Shown: positions 1,297-48,813, numbered from the stretch's first letter. The stretch: DNA of 64,000 nucleotides from an uncultured Actinomycetota bacterium (GCA_963776255.1 CAVZMB010000022.1:1789-65788); one strand, 5' to 3'. The notes: a model not told the origin generated them from the sequence alone. A program made the numbers and translations.

Positions 1297-1805
1297 TCAC
1301 GGGCGCGTCTCGTGCGCCAGCAACCAGCGCTTCACGTGCAGTCCCCAGCGGAACCCACCGAGCGTGCCGTCGCTGCGCAGCACCCGGTGGCACGGCACGA
1401 AAAGCGCGGCGGCGTTGCGTGCGCAGGCGGAGGCAGCGGCCCGCACGGCCGCCGGCCGCCCGGCCTTCGCGGCGAACTCGGTGTAGCTGAGTGCCGCCCC
1501 GGGCGGTACGCCGCGCAGCACGTCCCAGGCGTGTCCCAGGAACTCGCCGCCGCATTGCCGCACCGGGATCGCACCGACTGCGGACAGCTCGCCGTCGAGG
1601 TACGCCTGCACCGCCCGGCTCACCTCGCCGACCTCGGGCCGCGGCTGCGTCTCGTCGGGCCGCAACGTCGGGTGCACCAGCGCCAGCAGCGCCGCGGGGT
1701 CGGTCGTCCAGCCGGACGCGAGCACCACGCCGTCGTCGTCCAGCACGACGGTGAACGGTCCGACCGGGGTGTCCAGGCAGGTAGTGGTCCAAGTGATCGA
1801 GTCAT
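1297..1805 (-). CDS. ogt: Methylated-DNA--protein-cysteine methyltransferase
   Basis: VPCHRV active-site motif and SYTEFAAKAGRPAAVRA HTH. ATG at 1805 overlaps the alkA stop (ATGA) after GGAGG but is out of frame with the body, so an early indel is inferred. Confidence 0.9.
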
Positions 1806-3282
1806 GCCGTCCTCCGTAGTCTGGCGCCGGCACGCCACAGATGCATGCCGGCGTAGGAGCGCCACGGCCGCCAGCGGCGGGCGTGTGCGATGAGCGCGTC
1901 GAGATCCGCGACGGGCAGACCGACCGCGCCCGCGCCGCGGCGCAGCGCTACGTCGTCGACCAGCAGCTCGTCGGTGCGCCGAGCAGCCGCATGACCAGGT
2001 AGCCGGCGGTCCACGGCCCGATCCCGGGCAGCGCAACCAGCTGGGCGCGCAGCTCCTCGGCGTCCTGGCCGGGATCGAGCGCCAGCTCGCCGGTCTCGAT
2101 GGCGGCGGCCGCGGACCGCACTGCGGCGAGCCGGGCGGCCGGGCCGGTCAGCACCTCGTCGACCCGCTCGGCGACCGCGGCCGGCGCCGGGAACAGCCGC
2201 GTCAGGCCGTCCTGCTGGTCGACACGCAGCGGCTCGGGCAGCGGTTCGCCGAGCGCGGTGGTCAGCCGGGTCGCCGCGGTGCGGGCCGCCGCCACCGTCA
2301 CCTGCTGGCCGAGCATGGCCCGCAGCAGGGTCTCGGCGCCGTCCACGGTGCCCGGCACCCGGATGCCCGGTGCGTCGCACACCGCGGCGGCCAGCGCGGG
2401 GTCGGCGCCGAGCACGGCGTCGACCGCGACCGGATCCGCGTCCAGGTCGAGCAGCCGGCGCACCCTGGCCACCGCGGTGCCGAGGTCGCGCAGGTCGGTC
2501 AGTCGCAGGGTGGCCTCGATGTGCGCCCCGCCGGCGTCCGGCCGCAACGCGACGGTGGCCGGCCCGTTCGGCAGCCCGAGCGAGCGGGCGTACGAACCGG
2601 CGTCGACGAGCTCCACGCCCGGGACCGCGCGGGCGGCCAGGAAGTCGAGCAGGCCGTCCAGGTCGAACGGCCGGCGGTAGGGCAGCCGCAGCGTGATCGT
2701 GCCGGCCGACGGCCGGGTGACGCGTTCGGCGGTGCGCAAAGCCGACGGCGGCAGGTCGTAGGTCGCGCGCATCGTGTCGTTGAACTGACGAACGCTGGCG
2801 AACCCGGCGGCGAAGGCCACGTCCGCGAGCGGCAGCGCGGTGGTCTCGATGAGCACCCGGGCGTTGTGCGCCCGTTGGGCCCTGGCCAGCGCGAGCGGGC
2901 CGGCGCCGAGCTCCGCGGTAAGCACCCGCTGCAGCTGCCGCGGCGAGTACCCGAGGCGGGCGGCCAGCCCGGCCACCCCGTCCCGCTCGACGACACCGTC
3001 GGCGATCAGCCGCATGGCTCTTGAAGCGGTGTCCGCGCGGGCGTCCCAGTCCGGCGAGCCGGGGACCGAGTCCGGCCGGCAGCGGCGGCACGCCCGATAG
3101 CCGACCCGGATCGCGGCCGCCGCGGTAGGCAGGAACTCGACGTTGCGCCGCTTCGGGGTGATCGCCGGGCAGGACGGTCGACAGTAGATGCCGGTGGTGC
3201 GCACCGCGGTGACGAACTGCCCGTCGAACCGGGCGTCCCGCGACTCCACGGCGCGATAGCAGCGCTCGGCATCCAGGTGCAT
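1802..3282 (-). CDS. alkA: Ada-AlkA fusion (Ada Zn domain, AraC HTH, DNA-3-methyladenine glycosylase II); indel near 1973
   Basis: TTGIYCRPSC...CRRC Ada metal site; LPGIGPWTA HhH motif; C-terminal WRPWRSYAGMHLW lies in an adjacent frame. Confidence 0.92.
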
Positions 3283-6732: not shown

Positions 6733-7011
6733 ATCCACCGCAGCGCGGGGCCAATGCTCACACACCGGTTCCGGGTGCCCGCGCGTCGTAAGCGCCTCCA
6801 CACTGCGCGACCGCACGACCCGCTCCTGCCTGGCCTCTAGACGTCCCCTGCGCAAGCGGGCTCGCGGCCTGCACCCTGGCGCTGATCCACACCTGACCCG
6901 ACAGATGTCCCCGGCAACTGACTGGGGGAGAGCTGCCTGGGGGCGAGCTGACGCCAACCAGGCCCTCCGGACCGACCGGCCTGGGACAAGCTCCGAGATG
7001 AAGGAATGATC

Positions 7012-7500
7012 ATGTCTGCACCGAACTACCACGGCCCGCACGCCCCACCACCGCCTCCAGCGGATGTGCCGTCCCAGATGCCGTTCACCCACAGCCGGGA
7101 CCGCCGGCCGCCGCCGAAGCGGCGCCGATGGCCCTGGATCGTGGGCGCGATCCTGGTGTTGTTCGTCCTGGTCGTCTCGTGCAACGCGAATACCAGCTCC
7201 AAGAACGACAGCCCGCCCACGCCCGCGCCCGAGGCCCAGCAGGCCCCGGCACCCGCGCCAGCTCCGGCGCCCGCAGCCCCGGCACCCGCTCCGGCCGCCG
7301 ACCCCGGCCCTGCTCCGGCAGATGCGCCTGCCCCGGCACCTGCGGCTAAACCGGCACCCGCTCCGAAGGCGGCGCCAGCGGTGCCGGTGTACGCCAACTG
7401 CACCGAAGCCCGCGCTAATGGCCCCACTCCGCTATTCCGAGGGCAGCCGGGGTACTCCAGCAAGCTCGATCGCGATGGCGATGGGGTTGCATGCGAGTAG
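7012..7500 (+). CDS. Membrane-anchored excalibur calcium-binding domain protein
   Basis: TM segment, Pro/Ala linker, YANCTEARANG...GYSSKLDRDGDGVACE. Confidence 0.9.
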   Translation: MSAPNYHGPHAPPPPPADVPSQMPFTHSRDRRPPPKRRRWPWIVGAILVLFVLVVSCNANTSSKNDSPPTPAPEAQQAPAPAPAPAPAAPAPAPAADPGPAPADAPAPAPAAKPAPAPKAAPAVPVYANCTEARANGPTPLFRGQPGYSSKLDRDGDGVACE

Positions 7501-7730
7501 GCGGCCCTCTCCCGAATGTGCTGCAGCGTCCCGTGCGCGCGGAGGCTGACGCCATCGAGCGCCTGGCCGTCGTCACGTGCGCTAGCTCTTGATGCTCGCG
7601 GTCGCCTGGACGCTCGGCGACCTCGCCAGTGGGGACCGCCCGGACGAGACGATTGTCCCCGCCGCGATCCTGTTCAAGGACCGGCGGGCGGGGTGAGCGG
7701 GGCGGGGGCGGGGTACCTGCTCTGGATTAG

Positions 7731-7848
7731 TCCGTACTTGGTCCGCATCCGATCCGCAGAACGGCAATACGCGGCCAACGACTGCCAACAGCAGTCAACG
7801 CAATTTGAGGCAGGTCAGATGGCGTGTCGACCGTCTACCAGCAGGTCA
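7731..7848. repeat. Phased short repeats beside the att core (arm-type or accessory-site-like)
   Basis: TCCG(T/C)A at 7731/7742/7753, CAAC at 7776/7786/7796, GCAGGTCA at 7810/7841. Confidence 0.5.
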
Positions 7849-7987
7849 CCCGGCGGTCGGAGTTCCGCTTCAACGTCTAGATGCCGAAGCTTCGCTGATC
7901 GCGCCTCCCGTTCCCGCGAAAGGGTGCTCGGCTAGGCTTCCTGCCGTGAGGCTGGGTGACGGGCGCAGCAAGGCGGCGAGAACCGCC

Positions 7988-8077
7988 ATGATCGTGGTCG
8001 CCAACGTGTTGTTGCTCAGCCTGTGCCTGGCGTCGGTCGTCGCTTGGGTGGCAGTGGTGGTCACCTTCGGTCACTAG
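7988..8077 (+). CDS. Possible 29-aa hydrophobic peptide
   Basis: MIVVANVLLLSLCLASVVAWVAVVVTFGH, one TM-like stretch; weak RBS. Confidence 0.3.
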   Translation: MIVVANVLLLSLCLASVVAWVAVVVTFGH

Positions 8078-8252
8078 CTCGCGGCGACCCGGTGCCTTTG
8101 GACTCAGCAGGGCTGTAGGGACGTCCGGATCGCTGCCGCGGCGGAGGCAGCTACGCTCCAGAGCTGCCGTCAACCCAGCGCGCGGCCGGCCGCTGCGACG
8201 CCCGAGGGGCGCACTCGCAGACTGCGCGAGCCGGCCTCGCCCAAAGGATGCC

Positions 8253-9044
8253 ATGCGCACGGTGCACACCGTCGATCTGTTGCTCGTCACCATCGCGGTA
8301 GCCATCTTCGCTTCGTCGGGCTGCGCATCGGCGCCGCGGACGGAGGCCCCCGCTGCGCCCGGACCGGCCCAGGATCGGTCCGCGGTTCGGTATCCGGCCG
8401 ATGTCCTCGACCTCGAGAACTGGTACTTGACCCTGCCGACCGGAGCAGCCGGTGACCCGGACACCGTTCACCAACCCGAGTTGGCGACCTACAGCGGTCC
8501 CGACTTCCGGCTGACCGAGGCCAAGGACGGGGTGGTGCTCACGGCCAACGCCGGCGGGGCCACCACCGAGAACAGCGACTACCCGCGGTCCGAGTTGCGC
8601 GAGATGAGCGGGACCGAGAAGGCCAGCTGGTCCAACGCCAACGGCACGCACACACTCAGCGTGCGGCAAGCCGTCACTGCCCTGCCGCCCGCCAAGCCGG
8701 AGGTGACGACCGCTCAGATCCACGATGCGACCAGTGACGTGCTGGCAGTCCGTCTGGAGTCGACGAATCTGATCGCGCGGTACGAGGACAACGGTCGCAA
8801 GAACGACATCACGCTCGAACCGGCATACCAGCTCGGGACTCCATACGACCTGAGAATTGTCGCCGCCAACGGCCGGATCGAGGTCTACTACAACGGCACG
8901 AAAAAGGCAGACATCCCGAAGAGCGGGTCTGAGTGGTACTTCAAGAGCGGTAGTTACTTGCAGTCCAACCCGACCAAGGGCGACGCGCCTGACGCCAGCG
9001 GCGCGGTCGTGCTGTTCTCGCTGCTCGTGACGCATTCCGCCTAG
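8253..9044 (+). CDS. Polysaccharide lyase family 7 (alginate lyase), probable lipoprotein
   Basis: All three PL7 motifs: YPRSELRE, AQIHD, YFKSGSYLQ. Signal peptide ending ASSGC. Confidence 0.93.
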   Translation: MRTVHTVDLLLVTIAVAIFASSGCASAPRTEAPAAPGPAQDRSAVRYPADVLDLENWYLTLPTGAAGDPDTVHQPELATYSGPDFRLTEAKDGVVLTANAGGATTENSDYPRSELREMSGTEKASWSNANGTHTLSVRQAVTALPPAKPEVTTAQIHDATSDVLAVRLESTNLIARYEDNGRKNDITLEPAYQLGTPYDLRIVAANGRIEVYYNGTKKADIPKSGSEWYFKSGSYLQSNPTKGDAPDASGAVVLFSLLVTHSA

Positions 9045-9257
9045 CCGGCCGCCCGCCCGGAAGTCCACAGTGGAAGTGGCCATTCGCCGGCCGGCGGGCA
9101 TGGTGATCATCGCTGGCGGCCAGGTCGTTGCTAATGCAAGGTCTCAGTTCGAGCACGGATTGGTAACGCGGCAACGGGTCGTACCGAGAGACCGGGTGAG
9201 CACCGCCTCCATCCGCACGCTCCCCGAGGAAGCCGTGACTTGCGCCGGTCCCCACGC

Positions 9258-9281
9258 CGCGCCGAACCCAGGTTCGGCGCG
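9258..9281. promoter_or_regulatory. Palindrome with 11-bp arms containing CGAAC-N4-GTTCG
   Basis: CGCGCCGAACC-CA-GGTTCGGCGCG about 190 bp upstream of the dehydrogenase; GTTCGG recurs at 9295 and 9307. Confidence 0.4.
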
Positions 9282-9470
9282 TGACTGCGACCCGGTTCGG
9301 CGTGACGTTCGGTCTCCAAGACCGCCGGCGTGGCGAGTCTCGGCCTCCAGTTCCCCACGAGGCGCTGCTCAACGCACAACGCACCGCGGTTTCGCAGTCC
9401 GAATCGCCGTTCCGTGGCATCGACGCTCCCCGTCTGATTTCCGCTGCCACGGCCATCTCAGTTGGAGGTT

Positions 9471-10397
9471 GTGTTGTCCCAGATCGCGAGGATCTTCGTG
9501 GTCGGTGCAGGAGTTGTCGGTGCCGCGACCGGCCGCGGGTTCTTGGCCGCCGGTCACGAGGTCACCTTCGTCGACAAGTCGACGAACCGAGTGCGCGAGC
9601 TGCGCGCTCAGGGCCTGGACGCCCGCACGACGTTAGACCTGGAAGGTGAGCCGGAGTCGTTCGTGTTCCTGAGCCTGCCCACGCCGAACTCCGGGCTTGA
9701 ATACGATCTTCGGGCCATCGCCGCTGGCTCCGCAGCGGTCGGTCAGGCACTGGCCCGAACGCCCAGGGCTCATACGGTCGTCGTGCGTTCCACGGTTCCG
9801 CCGGGCACGACCGAGGGCCTGGTGCGCCCGCTGTTGGAGCAGCATTCCGGCAAGCGGATGGGCAGCGACGGGTTCGGGTTGGCGGCCAATCCGGAGTTCC
9901 TGCGAGCCGTATCGGCCGAGCAGGACTTCCGGAATCCGTGGATGACAGTCATCGGCTCGCGCGACGTCCGGACCGTCGCGCGGCTTCGCGAGCTGCTGCG
10001 ACCGTTCGGTGGCCGGATGGAAACCTTCCGCGACTGTGAGTCTGCGGAACTGGTGAAGTGCGCGCACAACCTCTTCAACGCGACCAAGATCAGCTTCTGG
10101 AACGAGATGTGGCTCGTCGCCAGCAGCCTCGGTATCGATCCGGATCGGGTCGCGTCTACCGTCGCGGCCTCTGCCGAGGGTTCGACGAATCCGAAGTACG
10201 GCATCCGGGGCGGCGCTCCCTATGGCGGGGTGTGCCTGCCTAAGGACACCCGCGGGTTCCTCGGCTTCGCCGCCGACGACCTCGCCCTGGAGATGCACCT
10301 CCTGCGCGCGACCATTGCCGTCAACGAACAGCTAGGCGAGATGGTGGACCGCGAGGTGGCGGCCGCCGTCAACGAGGCAGTGCGGGCGTCGAGCTAG
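9471..10397 (+). CDS. Short GDP-mannose/UDP-glucose 6-dehydrogenase family protein (AlgD-like)
   Basis: GAGVVG Rossmann motif, RSTVPPGTT, NPEFLR, ELVKCAHN...KISFWNE, catalytic YGGVCLPKD. About 308 aa. Confidence 0.9.
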   Translation: MLSQIARIFVVGAGVVGAATGRGFLAAGHEVTFVDKSTNRVRELRAQGLDARTTLDLEGEPESFVFLSLPTPNSGLEYDLRAIAAGSAAVGQALARTPRAHTVVVRSTVPPGTTEGLVRPLLEQHSGKRMGSDGFGLAANPEFLRAVSAEQDFRNPWMTVIGSRDVRTVARLRELLRPFGGRMETFRDCESAELVKCAHNLFNATKISFWNEMWLVASSLGIDPDRVASTVAASAEGSTNPKYGIRGGAPYGGVCLPKDTRGFLGFAADDLALEMHLLRATIAVNEQLGEMVDREVAAAVNEAVRASS

Positions 10398-11609
10398 ATG
10401 GCGCTGCCGCTCTACTACTACGTCCTTGGCACCCCGCTTGGCGTGCTGGGACTTATCAGGTGGGGGTGTTGGCTCGTCCGGCGGATGCCCGCCGTGCTCT
10501 ACAAGCCGATCAAGAACGACTTCCGGCTGCCGATCAGCGTGGTCGTGCCCGTGTACCAGGAGGACCCAGAGCTGTTCGCCACCGCGATCGAATCGTGGCT
10601 GGCGAACCCGGTCAGCGAGATCATTCTGGTGATCGACGTGTCGGACCAGGCCTGTCAGGCCGTGGCTCGCCGCTACCCGGTGACCGTGCTGATCACGGAC
10701 GTGCCGGGCAAGCGGGATGCGTTGCTTCGCGGGTGGCGGGCTGCGTCGACGGAGTTGGTCGCGCTGGTGGACTCCGACACGGTCTGGGCTCCCGACGTCG
10801 CCGACGAGGTGTGCAAACCCTTTGCCGATCCTCGCATCGGCGGCGTCGGCACCCGGCAGAGTGTCTACGGGTCGAAGGGATTCCTGGCCCGGATCACCGA
10901 CATGTATCTCGACCACCGCTACTTCGACGAGAACGCCAGCCAGAGCCTGCTGGGTCAGGCCGTTTCGTGCCTGTCCGGGCGCACCGCGATCTACCGTCGC
11001 TCGCTGCTGTCTCAGGCCGAACACGAGTTCATGAACGAGACCTTCTGGGGGGTGCCCTGCCTCTCCGGCGATGACAAGCGGCTGACTACCCTGACCCTCG
11101 CCGGCGGACACCTCACCTATATGCAGCGCAGCGCGCTTGTCTGGTCGACCTTCCCGACCCGGTGGAAGGTGTTCTTCAAGCAGCGGTTGCGATGGGCCCG
11201 GAACACCTGGCGCTCCGACATTCGTGCGCTGTCCAATCGGTGGGTGTGGGGACACCCATTTCTGGCTTACACCATGATCGACAAAGGGATCAGTAGCTTC
11301 ACCCTGCTGGTCGGGCCGGCATTCATGATCTACTCCTTGATCGTCCAGAACTGGACGTTCGTCGTGGTTCTGGCGCTGTGGTGGCAGGTCAGCCGGTCCG
11401 CGAAGCTGGCGCCGCACATCCGGCGGCGACCGTCGTCGTTCTTCTTCGTTCCTGGCTATGTCGTGGTGTCCTGGATCATGGCGCTGATCAAGATCTATGC
11501 GCTGATGACCATCCGCAAGCAACGCTGGCTCACCAGACACGTGGCCGTCGAGAACGGCGCGGTGGTGCGGACCGGACAATCGCCCGACCCGCTGGGTGCG
11601 CGCGCGTGA
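10398..11609 (+). CDS. Processive GT2 polysaccharide synthase (Alg8/HAS/NodC-like)
   Basis: N-terminal TM, VDSD, CLSGR, SGDDKRLT, QRLRW, C-terminal TM helices; starts immediately after the dehydrogenase stop. Confidence 0.9.
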   Translation: MALPLYYYVLGTPLGVLGLIRWGCWLVRRMPAVLYKPIKNDFRLPISVVVPVYQEDPELFATAIESWLANPVSEIILVIDVSDQACQAVARRYPVTVLITDVPGKRDALLRGWRAASTELVALVDSDTVWAPDVADEVCKPFADPRIGGVGTRQSVYGSKGFLARITDMYLDHRYFDENASQSLLGQAVSCLSGRTAIYRRSLLSQAEHEFMNETFWGVPCLSGDDKRLTTLTLAGGHLTYMQRSALVWSTFPTRWKVFFKQRLRWARNTWRSDIRALSNRWVWGHPFLAYTMIDKGISSFTLLVGPAFMIYSLIVQNWTFVVVLALWWQVSRSAKLAPHIRRRPSSFFFVPGYVVVSWIMALIKIYALMTIRKQRWLTRHVAVENGAVVRTGQSPDPLGARA

Positions 11610-14064
11610 AGGGCCCCTCGAACGCCCATCGACGGCGCTGGCGGCTGGTGCTGATCGTGCTGACCGTAGGCATCACCGGCTGGGCTTCCCCCGGGGTGGC
11701 CGTCGCCGGTCCCACCCAACCACCGCAGCCCGCTCCGACGCCTCCCGCCCAAACCAACCCGGCTCCGGCGCCAGCCCCGGCGCTCCGGCTCCCGCGCCGG
11801 CGCCGGCTCCCGCGCCCGCCCCGGCTCCGGCACCTCCTCCGGTGCCGGTCCCGGACCCGGCGGCGGAGGCGGCGGCTGCGGCCGCGCGGGCTGCCGAGCT
11901 AGCCCGTGAACGGGCCGCGCAAGCCGCCGAGGACCAGGCGGAACAGGCCAGGGCCGCGCAGACTGCCCGAATCTCGTGGGAGAAGCGCGGCCGGCCCAAC
12001 CGGCTGGTGCTGGTCCGTCGGACCAGCGTCGACTCGGTGAGCGCCGGATCCCTGGTGCAGCACCTTCGACGTCCGCCAGGTGCCCTGACCCTGTCCGCGC
12101 TCAATGCGTACCTGCCGGAATCGTGGCTGTTGATCTCGGATGGAACGGCGAGCCTGTCGGCGACCCTGGTGCTCTCGCAGGGCGTCGCGCTCGACGTCGG
12201 CGGCGACATTCGGACCGTGAAGCTCGTCGGCGGAGCGACCGCGGCCCAGGCGTCTTCGATCTTCACCGGTGGAGGCCAGCTCACGGTCCGGGGCGCGACG
12301 ATCACGTCAGCAGACCCGCGATCCCAGGAGGCCATGCCCGCAACGGAGGGCAGGCCGGTCATCGCGGTGGGCCGCGGTGGGCGTTTCAACGCGACCGACG
12401 TGACGATCAGCGACCTTGGAACACCGGGTACCGATATCGATCGCGGGCTGCCCGGCTTGCGGTACAACCCGGGCAGCAGCGGCGCCCTGGTCCGGACAAC
12501 ATTCCTGCGCAACAGCACAGGTCTCAGGCTTTCCGGTACCCAGAGCGCGCGCTTGGAGGATGTCACGGTTGCCGACTCGGCCGGCGACGGTCTGGTTCTC
12601 GAGGGCGACCAGGGCAGCACCGTCAAGGGCGTGCGAGCCGAACGCAATGGTGGCAGCGGCGTCCTGGTGACCGGTCCGGCCAGGGACAGCGCGGTCGGCG
12701 GCATTACGACGGAGGGCAACGGAGCGTTCGGCGTCACGATGATCGGGCAATCCAAGCAGCTGATCAGCGGCGTCGTCACGGCCAACGACAAGGCCGGCGG
12801 GCTTCGGGTGGGCCGCTCCACCGAGATCACGGTCACGGCCTTCCGCGCGACCGATCAGCCGATGGGGGTCTTCACCAACCTCGGATCCACCCAGATCACG
12901 CTCGACGGCATCCAGATCACTGGCGGGCGTCGTGGCGTGGTGGTGGAGAAATCCACCGAGCACGTCACGGTGATCGGCTCGACGATCGAGGGCTCGAAGG
13001 TCGCCGGCATCGCCATCGGCGGGCGCGAGGTCGAGCTGCGCGACGTGACCGTACGCGACGCGCATGCAGGGGTGCGGGTGGAACGCGGCGCGGCCGGGGT
13101 CCGAGCCACCGGCCTGACGTTGACCGGCGGGGAGGACGGGTTCGTCGCGTCGGCAGGCGCGTCGCGAATCGTCATGCAGAACCTGGTGGCGGACGGCGTC
13201 AGGAACGACGCTGTGCGGACATTCAGCCCGAACACAGAGATCAGCGGCGGCAAGATCAGCGGCGGCGCGACCGGCATCGATACCGGGGTGGCGACCACGA
13301 TCTCGGACACCGAGATCACGCTGTCCAACCAGGGGATCCGGGTGCGCGCAACAGAGCCCGTCATGGCCGAGCGCGTCAGCGTCGCGGCCGTCGCGGTCGG
13401 GGTCAACGTCGAGCCGGGCAGCCCGGTGACGCTCACCGACTCCCGCGTCTACGCCCTGGAATCGGTACGCGGCGATATGAAGAACGACGTCAAGTTGCTA
13501 GGTGCGAACGACTTCAGCCTTCCGCCGCTCAATGTGCTCGGCGCGATCGGCGTCCCGCTCATCCTGCTGGCATATGCCCTCGAGCAGGTGCACACCTTCC
13601 GCCAGCGCCGGGCCGGGGCCGCGGTTCGACGACGGCGACCTCCCCGCGTCGCGTCCACTGGATCATCGGCCGTTGTCGAGAAGCCGACGGAGCCCCCGAC
13701 GGTACCGCTGGCCCGGCGAACAGCCCCGACTACTGCTGCTCCGCAACGACGGCCGGGCCTACCCGTCATCTCCCCCTACCCGTCGCGGCTGGCGCCGCCA
13801 CGAGCGCGCGTCGCTCAGCAAGCGCCCCTGATCCCGCGCCCAAGGCGGCCGGCGACAGTCTCCGCCACCACGCGTCAGAATGGCGCACCGACCAATCAGC
13901 TGCGGAGAAACGGCCAGCCGGGCGCGCACGCTCCACCCGAGGATCAGCAGGCGAGACAACCTCTGCCCAATGGTCAGCTGCCGAGGCAGCGATCCGCCGT
14001 CCTGCCCTCGCCCAACGCCCAGCGGCCCAGGCCCAGGCTGCAGACGACACGGCGTGGCCGATGA
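11606..14064 (+). CDS. Secreted right-handed beta-helix protein with C-terminal TM anchor (indel near 11780)
   Basis: GTGA overlap with the GT2 stop; signal peptide RRRWRLVLIVLTVGITGWASPGVAVA; Pro-Ala linker; PbH1-like repeats; TM VLGAIGVPLILLAYAL; Pro/Arg tail. Confidence 0.8.
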
Positions 14065-15407
14065 TGCCGATCAGAACCCATCGCACGTGCGGGCGGGCCG
14101 CGCTGCTGGTCGGGTCCGTGCTGTGCCTGGTCTTGAGCGCCTGTTCCTCGCAGCCGGCACCGCTGGAACGTCGCGATGTTTCCCCTGCGGCGCAGATCGA
14201 TCCGGCTCGGCCCTGCGTCCGCGAAGCGCAGCACGTCGATCCTGGCGAAGACGGATCGTCGAAGGATGTGGAGGCAACGTTCGACCGAGGCGCCAACAAG
14301 ATCGTGCTCAGCGCCGGTGAGGGCGTCACGGTCCCCGCGCTGAGCCGGGCTGTGGCCGATCAATCCGCACTGCGCGAGCTCGCGCCGGGCGAATGGCTGT
14401 TCGGCGCAAACCTCGAGGTGCTCAAAGGTGCTTCGCTGCGGATCGCGTCGCCTACCGTGCGCTGGCTCAAGCTGAGCAGCGCTGGGCAGCGCTTCGTGAC
14501 GATCAAGGCCATCGGCGGCAACCTCGACATCAGCGGTACGTGCATCACCTCGTGGGACTCCCAGCAGGAACGCGCCGACACCGAGCACCTGGACGGCCGC
14601 AGCTTCCTGCTCGCCAAGGACGGCGGGCAGATGACCATCGACCGTGCCGAGCTGCGGTACCTCGGCTTCGGCGCCGTCGAGTCATACGGGCTGTCGTGGC
14701 GAATTGAGGGCACGGGCGGACGAATCACCAACAGCGTGGTATCTCACCTGTACTTCGGCCTCTACACCTACGCCGTCGGCGGCCTGGTGGTGGAAGGCAA
14801 CGAGTTCCACGACAACGTGCTGTACGGGATCGACCCACATACCGGTTCCCATGACTTGCGAATAGAGCGCAACGTCGTACACGACAACGGCAAGCACGGA
14901 ATCATTCTTGCCGAAGAGTGCACGGCAAGCGTGATACGAGACAATGTCGTCTACCGCAACCGTCATCACGGAATCGTGCTGTACTTGCACGCCGACCGGA
15001 ACACAATCGAGGGTAACCACTCGTTCCAGAACGAAGCCCAAGGCATTAATATCAACGAGTCCTCGAACAACACGATTCGTGCCAACCACGTGTACGACAA
15101 CGGCGAGTCGGGAGTGGGAGTCGGCCAGCGCTCGCAGGACAACCTGTTGGATCAGAACGAGGTCCGGGCCAACAAGCAGGACGGTGTGCGCTTGGTGAGC
15201 GAGGCAACGCGGACGACCGTGCAAGGAAACGTCATCGGCGAGAACGCCCGATACGGCATCTATATCGACAGCGACGGAGAATTCACTCTCGCGGGCAACC
15301 GGATCTTCGGCAGTCAGGTCGGCGTGCTGCGAAAGGGCCCGACCGACACCCAAGCCGGAAACAACGCGTTCCACGACAACAGTGAGGCCGACGTGAAAAA
15401 CCGATGA
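14061..15407 (+). CDS. AlgG-like mannuronan C5-epimerase, lipoprotein
   Basis: ATGA overlap; LSAC lipobox; LGFGAVESYGLSW; YFGLYTY...GNEFHDNVLYGIDPHTGSHDLRIERN...KHGII matches the AlgG catalytic region as recalled. Confidence 0.82.
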   Translation: MMPIRTHRTCGRAALLVGSVLCLVLSACSSQPAPLERRDVSPAAQIDPARPCVREAQHVDPGEDGSSKDVEATFDRGANKIVLSAGEGVTVPALSRAVADQSALRELAPGEWLFGANLEVLKGASLRIASPTVRWLKLSSAGQRFVTIKAIGGNLDISGTCITSWDSQQERADTEHLDGRSFLLAKDGGQMTIDRAELRYLGFGAVESYGLSWRIEGTGGRITNSVVSHLYFGLYTYAVGGLVVEGNEFHDNVLYGIDPHTGSHDLRIERNVVHDNGKHGIILAEECTASVIRDNVVYRNRHHGIVLYLHADRNTIEGNHSFQNEAQGININESSNNTIRANHVYDNGESGVGVGQRSQDNLLDQNEVRANKQDGVRLVSEATRTTVQGNVIGENARYGIYIDSDGEFTLAGNRIFGSQVGVLRKGPTDTQAGNNAFHDNSEADVKNR

Positions 15408-15432
15408 GGCAACTCGGCCGGCCCGTCCGGGC

Positions 15433-15756
15433 TCACGCCAGGACAACCTCCGCCATCTCCGACCAGCCCGCGCCCGGCAGCTCCTGATAAACGATCTTCG
15501 GCACCGACGCGACCACGGACGGCAGCCAGCCGAAGAACCTCTGCGCATGCTCGGAGGCCACGTGCGCCTCGCCGGCCGCCTGGTCGACGTAGTTGGCTAT
15601 CACGGCGTACTCGTCGGGCCGCTCGACGCTCGCGAAGCAGCTGAAGACGAGGTTGCCCGGCTCCTCCCGAACCCGTGCCGAGTACCGGGTGATTCCGGCC
15701 AGAAAGTCCTCCTTCTTCTCTGGGCGGATGTCGATCCTGATGACGATGAAGATCAC
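15433..15756 (-). CDS. Antibiotic biosynthesis monooxygenase / putative quinol monooxygenase
   Basis: VREEPGNL and AHVASEH; 107 aa; GGAGG RBS. Confidence 0.85.
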   Translation of the reverse strand: MIFIVIRIDIRPEKKEDFLAGITRYSARVREEPGNLVFSCFASVERPDEYAVIANYVDQAAGEAHVASEHAQRFFGWLPSVVASVPKIVYQELPGAGWSEMAEVVLA

Positions 15757-15864
15757 GACGCCTCCGATGAGCCTCGGCACTGTGGTCCAGGTGTACCGCA
15801 CTCCCGACGTCCTCGGTGTCTCATCCAGGACCACCTAACGAGTCGATCGCCGCGGCGAACATCA

Positions 15865-15931
15865 TGATCAACGGCGGCGATGTACGGCCCTATTGCACGA
15901 AGGTGCCGTTCGTGGGCGGCTAACGGGGCGG
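15865..15931 (+). repeat. 67-bp dispersed intergenic repeat, copy 1
   Basis: 53/67 nt identical (hand count) to the reverse complement of 62586-62652. Confidence 0.75.
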
Positions 15932-47558: not shown

Positions 47559-48813
47559 GTGACCGGTCCGGCTCGCGTCCGGCCATCCGTTCAGGCCGGG
47601 CTGCCAGCCAGGGTGTTGGGGATCGTGCTCGCCGGCGGCGAGGGAAAGCGGCTTTGGCCGCTGACGACCGACCGAGCCAAACCCGGGGTGCCGTTCGGCG
47701 GCAACTACCGGTTGATCGACTTCGTGCTGTCCAACCTGGTCAACGCCGGGGTGCACCGAGATCTGCGTGCTCACCCAGTACAAGTCGCACTCGCTGGACC
47801 GGCACATCTCCACCACCTGGCGGCTGTCCAGCGTGCTCGGTCAATACATCACCACGGTGCCGGCCCAACAGCGGCTCGGGCGCCGCTGGTACACCGGCAG
47901 CGCGGACGCGATCTACCAGAGCCTGAACCTGGTCTACGACGAGCATCCGGACTACATAGCGGTGTTCGGCGCCGACCACGTCTATCGGATGGACCCCGGG
48001 CAGATGGTGGCCCAGCACATCGTCAAGGGCGCCGGGGTCACGGTGGCCGGGATCCGGGTGCCGCGGGCCGAGGCCAAGGGCTTCGGCGTGATCGACGCGG
48101 ACGCGGACGGGCAGATCACCGGGTTCCTGGAGAAGCCGTCCGAGCCGCCCGGCGTGCCCGACGACCCCGAGGTCACGTTCGCCTCGATGGGCAACTACCT
48201 GTTCACCACCGACGTGCTGCTGGACGCGCTGCGGGCCGATGCCGAGAACTCCGACTCGGACCACGACATGGGCGGGGACATCATCCCGTACCTGGTGTCC
48301 GAGGGGGACGCCAGCGTCTACGACTTCGCCGACAATGTGGTGCCGGGCGCCACCGACCGGGACGCCGGGTACTGGCGCGACGTCGGCACCCTGGACGCCT
48401 ACTACGAGGCGCACTCCGACCTGGTGTCCGTGCACCCGATCTTCAACCTGTACAACGACCGGTGGCCGATCCGGACCGCTACCGCGTCGCTGCCGCCGGC
48501 GAAGTTCGTCGAGCACGGCGCGGCGTTCGACTCCATCGTCGGGGCCGGCACGATCATCTCCAACGCCACCGTGCACCGATCGGTGATCAGTACCGCGGTG
48601 ATGGTGGAGTCCGGCGCCGAGGTGTCCGACTCGGTGATCATGCCGGGGGCCCGGGTCGGCCGGGGTGCGGTGGTGCGCCGGGCGATCCTGGACAAGAACG
48701 TGGTCGTGCCGGACGGCGCGATGGTCGGCGTCGACCGCAGCCTGGACCGCACCCGCTACACGGTGAGCGCGGGCGGCGTGGTCGTGCTCGGCAAGGGCGC
48801 CGTCGCGCTCTAG
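47559..48813 (+). CDS. glgC: Glucose-1-phosphate adenylyltransferase (indel near 47757)
   Basis: [44 protein letters not shown]. Confidence 0.95.

Follow-up and report, generated by a model that had tools for sequence, protein, structure and literature searches.

Pseudomonas, Azotobacter and brown algae are the only organisms for which alginate synthesis is established, and for the algae the polymerase still awaits validation (PMC11468063). Alginate operons were placed largely in Pseudomonas by a survey that used Pseudomonas models (PMC7112194). Work on the Ectocarpus genome is the source of a proposal, taken up in an earlier note on the DNA studied here, that brown algae obtained their terminal alginate steps from an actinobacterium; this proposal is found second-hand in two papers (PMC8307928, PMC4444821), and for one enzyme, GDP-mannose dehydrogenase (GMD), an actinobacterial origin has been doubted (PMC11468063). 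The same paper presents actinobacterial sequences as the closest bacterial relatives of the algal epimerases and describes the Streptomyces that it discusses as not known to have an alginate pathway (PMC11468063).

Here, we describe a five-gene cluster at positions 8253-15407 (+) of a 64,000-nucleotide stretch of DNA from an uncultured Actinomycetota bacterium (hereafter, the window). The cluster appears to encode a short GMD of the brown-algal type, a processive family 2 glycosyltransferase (GT2), two beta-helix proteins of which the second resembles the epimerase AlgG, and an alginate lyase of family PL7. It is a real, conserved and co-inherited operon, and we propose that it makes an unacetylated alginate-like polymer by a monoderm pathway. 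We put the probability of this reading at about 0.6, and we infer all of its substrates and products from sequence. In the literature we found no account of the operon or of actinobacterial alginate; an earlier mention is possible, for example in the 2010 transfer paper and in subscription journals outside our search. The operon is apparently undescribed.

Layout and conservation of the operon

The five genes can be seen in the sequence as open reading frames (ORFs) in one orientation, as had been noted from the sequence alone, and the tight junctions between the last four are all present (TAG-ATG at 10395-10400, GTGA at 11606-11609 and ATGA at 14061-14064). An intergenic stretch of 429 bp (9045..9473, from the ORF coordinates) separates the lyase gene from this four-gene core. 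The protein families first assigned also agree at a coarse level: PL7, the N-terminal and central domains of UDPG/MGDP dehydrogenases, GT2 and two right-handed beta-helices. The genome to which the window belongs (4.26 Mb, 74% complete) is probably Pseudonocardia-like, as inferred from its named best matches.

We searched GTDB with an alignment of the dehydrogenase and recovered 307 stretches, the best 80 of which yielded the 76 loci on which the locus counts given here are based. These loci belong to Pseudonocardia, Streptomyces, Thermopolyspora, Microtetraspora, Actinocrinis and uncultured actinobacteria; they are kin and overlap our earlier locus sets, and are therefore not independent. The GT2 was found in 71 loci, the anchored beta-helix in 65 and the epimerase-like gene in 56, and 10 of the 21 incomplete loci stop at or close to a contig end. 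Joint conservation in other genomes, which the earlier note had set as a test, held, with all four core genes present at 55 of the 76 loci and the order dehydrogenase, GT2, beta-helix conserved over the loci. Across the genus, the dehydrogenase is present in 44 of 137 genomes, with up to four copies each; across the phylum, a match to the AlgG model was found in 8 of 401 genomes, a tally that includes the window's genome and one unpublished genome (G127), which enters into no other result given here. Related clusters were found in three more actinobacterial families. Six loci (L120, L122, L125, L129, L144 and L187) carry tandem duplications of the whole operon. Some genomes of the Pseudonocardia genus have four dehydrogenase and five epimerase-like copies, stand-alone ones among them, a copy number reminiscent of Azotobacter and brown algae, whose epimerases form multigene families.

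We clustered all neighbours of the 76 loci and found no acetylation, export or regulatory gene that recurs across genera. Alg44/PilZ, outer-membrane and acetylation genes, which had been reported missing nearby, are indeed absent from the window region and from these recurrent neighbours (no genome-wide PilZ search was made). A search for MBOAT proteins gave no match in the window's genome, incomplete as it is, and the control for this search matched in 3 of 14 genomes.

Dehydrogenase, polymerase and lyase

The dehydrogenase (9474..10397, +; 307 aa) carries the motifs GAGVVG, PEFLRAVS and GAPYGGVCLPKD, and its start was inferred from a GGAGG at 9464-9468 and a database entry of 307 aa. Its domains, signature residues and position in our trees indicate that it is a short GMD of the brown-algal type and not an AlgD-like enzyme. 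Algal GMDs end ahead of the last domain of AlgD (PMC11468063 supplement), and two of them from Saccharina, with 320 and 315 residues, have activity proven by HPLC and MS (PMC4782291). The corresponding C-terminal domain, PF03720, is absent from the window enzyme and from its 120 best homologues; 53 residues follow its catalytic Cys, compared with 56-58 in algal GMDs and 163-180 in the AlgD-like protein and most full-length forms. Four residues are reported to distinguish algal from bacterial GMDs (V17, A146, V147 and P257 in SjGMD1 numbering; PMC4782291), and the window enzyme has all four. The short tail, the first Val, the Ala and the Pro are found in all 120 of its homologues, and the second Val in 80. 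Moreover, PEFLRAVS and KYG-R-GAPYGGVCLPKD are common to the window enzyme and the GMDs of Ectocarpus and Undaria. Among 51 short phage dehydrogenases, the RA pair was found in none, the Pro in one and the first Val in 20. Shortness itself was dropped as a marker of GMDs, as short forms also occur in phages and in Bathyarchaeota clusters.

In a midpoint-rooted IQ-TREE tree of 39 rows, which left out 19 further long-branch, partial or redundant rows, a branch with support of 100/99 placed the actinobacterial short forms, the brown-algal GMDs and giant-virus-like sequences on one side and the AlgD-like protein, UDP-glucose dehydrogenase (UGD)-type proteins and phage short forms on the other. The same branch had a support of 99 in a 58-row tree, from which one mis-extracted row had been removed. 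The actinobacterial enzymes appear to be a sister group of the algal GMDs, with no demonstrated donor; a direct actinobacterial donor of the algal GMD is unsupported by the midpoint-rooted tree. The parts are not orthologues of AlgD and Alg8: the dehydrogenase lacks PF03720 and stands on a separate branch, and the GT2 is 21% identical over 426 columns to an Alg8-like protein, the reference being from a Rhizobium alg-type operon and not P. aeruginosa Alg8.

Contextual evidence bears on the supply of the precursor. In 10 of 27 Streptomyces loci, a nucleotidyltransferase gene lies 73-170 bp downstream of the lyase gene, here of family PL14, and the top four PDB matches of its product are headed by mannose-1-phosphate guanylyltransferases. 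The Thermopolyspora locus also has a nucleotidyltransferase nearest to these enzymes, and an Actinocrinis locus has a different gene that scores 361 bits over part of the mannose-1-phosphate guanylyltransferase model. In all, 12 loci have such an added gene, and these neighbours would provide independent contextual support for GDP-mannose.

The GT2 (10398..11609, +; 403 aa) is, by profile and PDB matches, a processive synthase resembling hyaluronan synthases and NodC. Its processive motifs are intact (DSD at 125, GDDK at 224 and QRLRW at 262), and membrane helices lie at its C-terminus. In 22 of 150 representatives of the GT2 family, an AlgG-like domain stands on the same chain, with YGxDPHD in 9 of them; WWE3 is one named lineage with such fusions. 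Named relatives come from WWE3, Limnocylindrales, Anaerolineae, Nitrososphaeraceae, three fungi and Mesostigma. The Mortierellomycota, chytrid and Mesostigma proteins of this family (P0322, P0339, P0341 and P0348) formed one clade with a giant-virus GT2 (support 100) in a FastTree tree from which the Alg8-like row had been removed by the coverage filter.

The lyase (8253..9044, +; 263 aa) is a PL7 protein (PF08787, E 5e-38, passing the Pfam cut-off) and, from its sequence, a predicted lipoprotein. It has RSELRE at 112, QIHD at 155 and YFKSGSYLQ at 229, which fit the PL7 motifs RxELR, QIH and YFKxGxYxQ. Its best PDB matches are AlgAT5 (5zqi, E 3e-54), a polyguluronate lyase (1uai, E 9e-47) and a glucuronan lyase (7nde, E 2e-11). 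At the related loci the lyase slot holds PL14 in 37 cases and PL7 in 25, with either in 56 of 76; PL14 is present in 26 of the 27 Streptomyces loci, and PL7 in Pseudonocardia-type loci. The best PDB match of the PL14 protein is an alginate lyase as well; the two families that fill the slot are unrelated, and for both of them the nearest solved members are alginate lyases. A search for PL14 in the window's genome gave no match, and the control for that search also matched nowhere.

Proposed product and alternative explanations

Building on what is established, namely gene content, gene order, conservation, family membership, the GMD clade and the fusions, we propose the following pathway. The short dehydrogenase would convert GDP-mannose to GDP-mannuronate, and the GT2 would polymerise beta-1,4-mannuronan and translocate it over the single membrane. 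The anchored, motif-less beta-helix protein (gene 4) would guide the chain, the AlgG-fold lipoprotein (gene 5) would epimerise part of the mannuronate (M) to guluronate (G), while the PL7 lipoprotein would shorten or remove polymer. A mannuronate polymer of some kind is likely; that it is also epimerised in the window's clade we consider only somewhat favoured. The minimal monoderm alginate-like pathway that the earlier note put forward gained from synteny, the type of GMD, the fusions, the lyase families, the guanylyltransferase-like neighbours and the absence of acetylation or export genes among the recurrent neighbours. As for the unacetylated M/G product that it named, the G residues are uncertain, because two active-site positions of the epimerase are altered in this clade, and epimerisation is the weakest step of the proposed pathway. 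Observations that weigh against the alginate reading concern this epimerase, the sugar nucleotide, gene 4 and the link to brown algae, and they are given below with the subject that each touches.

Gene 5 (14061..15407, +; 448 aa, a predicted lipoprotein) has an AlgG-like fold by model search, structure and alignment. Its structural model reached a pLDDT of 91, and the top four Foldseek matches were AlgG, with TM scores of 0.64-0.70. Against the AlgG model NF038177 it scored 136 bits, with a cut-off of 700 that is also far above the 259 bits of the AlgG-like protein in a canonical-looking operon. The AlgG catalytic motif ascribed to it reads YGIDPHT, so that six of the seven positions of YG(F/I)DPH(D/E) are present and the last is not. 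Specifically, Y255, D258, P259 and H260 are kept and are invariant in all 34 aligned sequences, while T261 and A284-E285-E286 replace the Asp and the Ser-Arg-Glu of AlgG. All 120 close homologues of gene 5 have DPHT, and none has Arg or Lys at the triplet, which is Ala-Glu-Asp/Glu or similar. In contrast, the Streptomyces versions (DPHD with SQR) and the fused forms (DPHD with SKR or SRR) keep a basic residue, and both satisfy YG(F/I)DPH(D/E). The aligned Arg of the Ser-Arg-Glu triplet is presumably the carboxylate-neutralising arginine of AlgG. AlgG neutralises the carboxylate by arginine (PMC4444821), and AlgE does so by acidic residues and calcium (PMC8824271). By analogy, the epimerase of the Pseudonocardia clade may need calcium, like the AlgE enzymes; since the triplet is acidic where AlgG has arginine, the window's gene-5 protein may be calcium-assisted, a lyase or inactive.

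A serious though unlikely alternative is that mannuronan is made but that gene 5 of the Pseudonocardia clade no longer acts as an epimerase and instead cleaves the chain, controls its length or serves as a binding guide, leaving few or no G residues. The substitutions shared by the 120 homologues would fit this, as would the six Streptomyces loci that have no epimerase-like gene and the example of AlgE7, in which both reactions take place at one site; this site is sensitive, D178R in AlgE7 being inactive (PMC8824271). Against it stand the invariant Tyr, Asp, Pro and His, the acidic residues, which at these positions are what AlgE uses together with calcium (PMC8824271), the PL7 partner, whose closest relatives include a polyguluronate lyase, and the retention of up to five gene-5 copies in some genomes.

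Next in order, and improbable in our view, is another acidic polymer made from UDP-sugars (a glucuronan, or a hyaluronan-like or pneumococcal type-3-like heteropolymer), for which alginate-type partners would have been re-purposed. The closest solved relative of the GT2 is a hyaluronan synthase (E 2e-19), an enzyme that makes a heteropolymer, and its best NCBIfam match is the NodC model (E 2e-36, under the cut-off); its family has fungal and Mesostigma members, and glucuronan lyases occur within PL7. The top PDB and fold match of the dehydrogenase is an archaeal UDP-glucose dehydrogenase, and our model of the enzyme (pLDDT 72, poor over residues 225-273 near the catalytic loop) cannot separate GDP from UDP. 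Pairwise identity is 34% to the Ectocarpus GMD, 32% to the AlgD-like protein and 30-33% to UGD-type proteins, and JGI labels the homologues UDP-glucose dehydrogenase. Algal UGDs have been reported with GMD activity (PMC5778160), and substrate specificity in the dehydrogenase family is therefore loose. Lastly, the guanylyltransferase-like genes of Streptomyces score 124-131 bits, with that of Thermopolyspora in the same range, where the cut-off is 440. The alginate-like reading is nonetheless favoured over UDP-sugar polymers by the grouping of the dehydrogenase in the clade of biochemically proven algal GMDs, by nearby nucleotidyltransferases nearest to mannose-1-phosphate guanylyltransferases, by the two unrelated alginate-lyase families in the lyase slot, and by the association of the UGD-type enzyme with a separate, paralogous cluster.

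This paralogous actinobacterial cluster (L028, L029 and L050-L053) has a GT2 at 37% identity with GDDG in place of GDDK, a full-length UGD-type dehydrogenase and a beta-helix protein that mostly lacks DPH. Its product is possibly a glucuronate polymer. Comparison with it shows that the DPH motif and the GMD-type enzyme tend to occur in the same clusters. The split between the two cluster types is not clean, however, as L050 has a type-B GT2 next to a DPH protein.

Gene 4 (11606..14064, +) encodes a membrane-anchored beta-helix protein without a DPH motif, which Pfam, hhalign and its relatives mark as a degenerate paralogue of gene 5 (hhalign probability 99.85, E 1e-30). Its parts are, in order, a signal peptide, a Pro/Ala linker, the beta-helix, a C-terminal membrane helix and a disordered tail; we regard it as a putative chain guide or co-polymerase. 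In another lineage, the anchored copy is the one that bears DPH. The beta-helix family first given for gene 4 was borne out, while the single ORF was not: the assembly has a frameshift in this gene, which puts the beta-helix body out of frame with the GTG at 11606 and the signal peptide, and the reading frame changes in the Pro/Ala repeat at about 11770-11800. None of four public read runs bridges this site. An assembly error is likely, because 50 of 54 gene-4 relatives begin in frame where the GT2 stops (the other four show no in-frame start) and because glgC (window 47590-48790, +) is likewise divided over two frames. The ada/alkA gene (window 1802-3282, -) also seems to run on in another frame at its 3' end, although Pfam did not confirm this; together with glgC, it suggests indel errors in the assembly.

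We give little credence to the idea that the polymer is made by the family elsewhere and that the window copy is decaying, with gene 4 truly broken. This frameshift, the patchy occurrence in the genus and the lower GC content of the region (64-69% over 4-16 kb, elsewhere in the window mostly 70-77%) would agree with decay; the other four ORFs, however, are intact and 60-84% identical to their relatives, and the split glgC and the four relatives without an in-frame start point to assembly indels in the repeat. Scarcely credible at all is a role in degradation, with environmental alginate as the substrate of the lyase and the epimerase-like proteins: although the PL7 is closest to catabolic lyases, the conserved core is a dehydrogenase with an intact processive synthase, relatives fuse synthase and epimerase, and no transporter or sugar-acid catabolic gene recurs beside the core across genera.

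Just upstream of the cluster, at window 7006-7500 (+), lies a gene for a secreted Pro/Ala-rich protein with an Excalibur calcium-binding domain, which does not recur beside related loci. A scan of 7500-15900 for sigma-70-type promoters gave no match with a sigma-70 model that is uninformative for an actinobacterium.

Algal and viral relatives and comparison with known systems

We also considered a broader hypothesis, which we hold only tentatively and think more doubtful than not. The GMD, the hyaluronan synthase/NodC-like GT2 and the AlgG-like protein may form the module of a second, more widespread alginate pathway, found in actinobacteria, as a one-chain fusion in candidate phyla and as a GMD-GT2 pair in giant viruses; brown algae might have taken GMD and epimerase from this module, possibly via a virus, and the GT2 family might define the brown-algal mannuronan synthase. 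Of 16 metagenome loci, 7 have an algal-type GMD beside a member of the GT2 family; one of these 7 is a giant-virus contig, and an epimerase match was found in none of them. In the contigs L055 and L271-L284, which are mostly AT-rich and include one giant-virus record, a GMD up to 49% identical to that of Ectocarpus adjoins the GT2. A viral scan with an alignment of the actinobacterial GT2 gave no match, and one with a eukaryote-like GT2 alignment gave four loci; three viral contigs with the GT2 have no GMD within about 10 kb. On a long branch, the algal GMDs fall within a set of giant-virus-like and unnamed sequences, and 1.0 substitutions per site separate them from the actinobacterial group. 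No brown-algal member of the GT2 family was found among the 30 of 150 representatives that were looked up, for which eight clusters had a taxon name. Algal GT2s are described as having no homology to Alg8 (PMC11468063), and because our family is weakly Alg8-like, an algal orthologue in it is somewhat disfavoured. The dehydrogenase-synthase pair of EsV-1 was not used as support, its synthase being classed by description with chitin synthases (PMC5122149).

If true, the proposal would mean that bacteria have two routes to alginate, and it would point towards the seaweed alginate synthase; it would also offer new epimerases and a short way to microbial alginate that involves no acetylation. With an operon of four to six genes in culturable Streptomyces and Pseudonocardia, two old questions come within reach of bench experiments: whether alginate is made by actinobacteria at all, as the 2010 transfer hypothesis assumed, and what a mannuronan synthase other than Alg8 looks like.

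A Pseudomonas-type alginate operon also occurs outside Pseudomonas, on a Rhizobium gallicum replicon (NZ_CP092346.1, L189:1472-22314). It includes a PL7 with RTX repeats, a PL5-type lyase, a full-length AlgD-like protein, Alg8-like, AlgA-like and AlgX-like proteins, an AlgG-like protein (DPHD, SRE) and two proteins that are Alg44-like by position only (one was scanned, with no Pfam match). AlgG-like matches were found in nine Rhizobium records.

Compared with the systems described so far, the actinobacterial operon shares with each of them some parts and not others. Like the alginate system of Pseudomonas and Azotobacter, it combines a precursor dehydrogenase, a GT2 synthase, an AlgG-fold epimerase-like protein and a lyase in one operon; it departs from that system in its GMD, which is short and of the algal type where AlgD would stand, and in its lyase, which belongs to PL7 or PL14 and not to PL5. 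Its synthase gene is followed by one for an anchored AlgG paralogue that lacks the motif, no gene resembles Alg44, anchoring is of the lipoprotein type, and outer-membrane and acetylation genes are absent. With the GMDs of Ectocarpus and Saccharina (315-322 aa), its dehydrogenase shares the missing C-terminal domain, the signature residues and the clade, at an identity of about 34%. The brown-algal ManC5-E epimerases all have DPHD, whereas the window protein has DPHT. Their published tree includes a protein of Streptomyces ochraceiscleroticus (PMC11468063), and a genome of this species carries the operon with a DPHD epimerase (L145; the match was judged by species, not by accession).

The hasAB genes provide a further parallel, with a dehydrogenase gene beside the synthase gene as in the window cluster. 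Class I hyaluronan synthases and NodC are, like the window GT2, small GT2 proteins predicted to polymerise and translocate alone, with DxD, GDD and QxxRW; they differ in that the similarity is limited to E 2e-19 and that the partner here is of the GMD type, with epimerase-like and alginate-lyase genes attached. AlgE4, AlgE6 and AlgE7 share with gene 5 the Y-D-H core and acidic residues by the site, but gene 5 is nearer to AlgG (TM 0.64-0.70, compared with about 0.4) and has no R-modules. Taken together, these comparisons suggest an operon that works like an alginate pathway, yet stands outside the Pseudomonas system.

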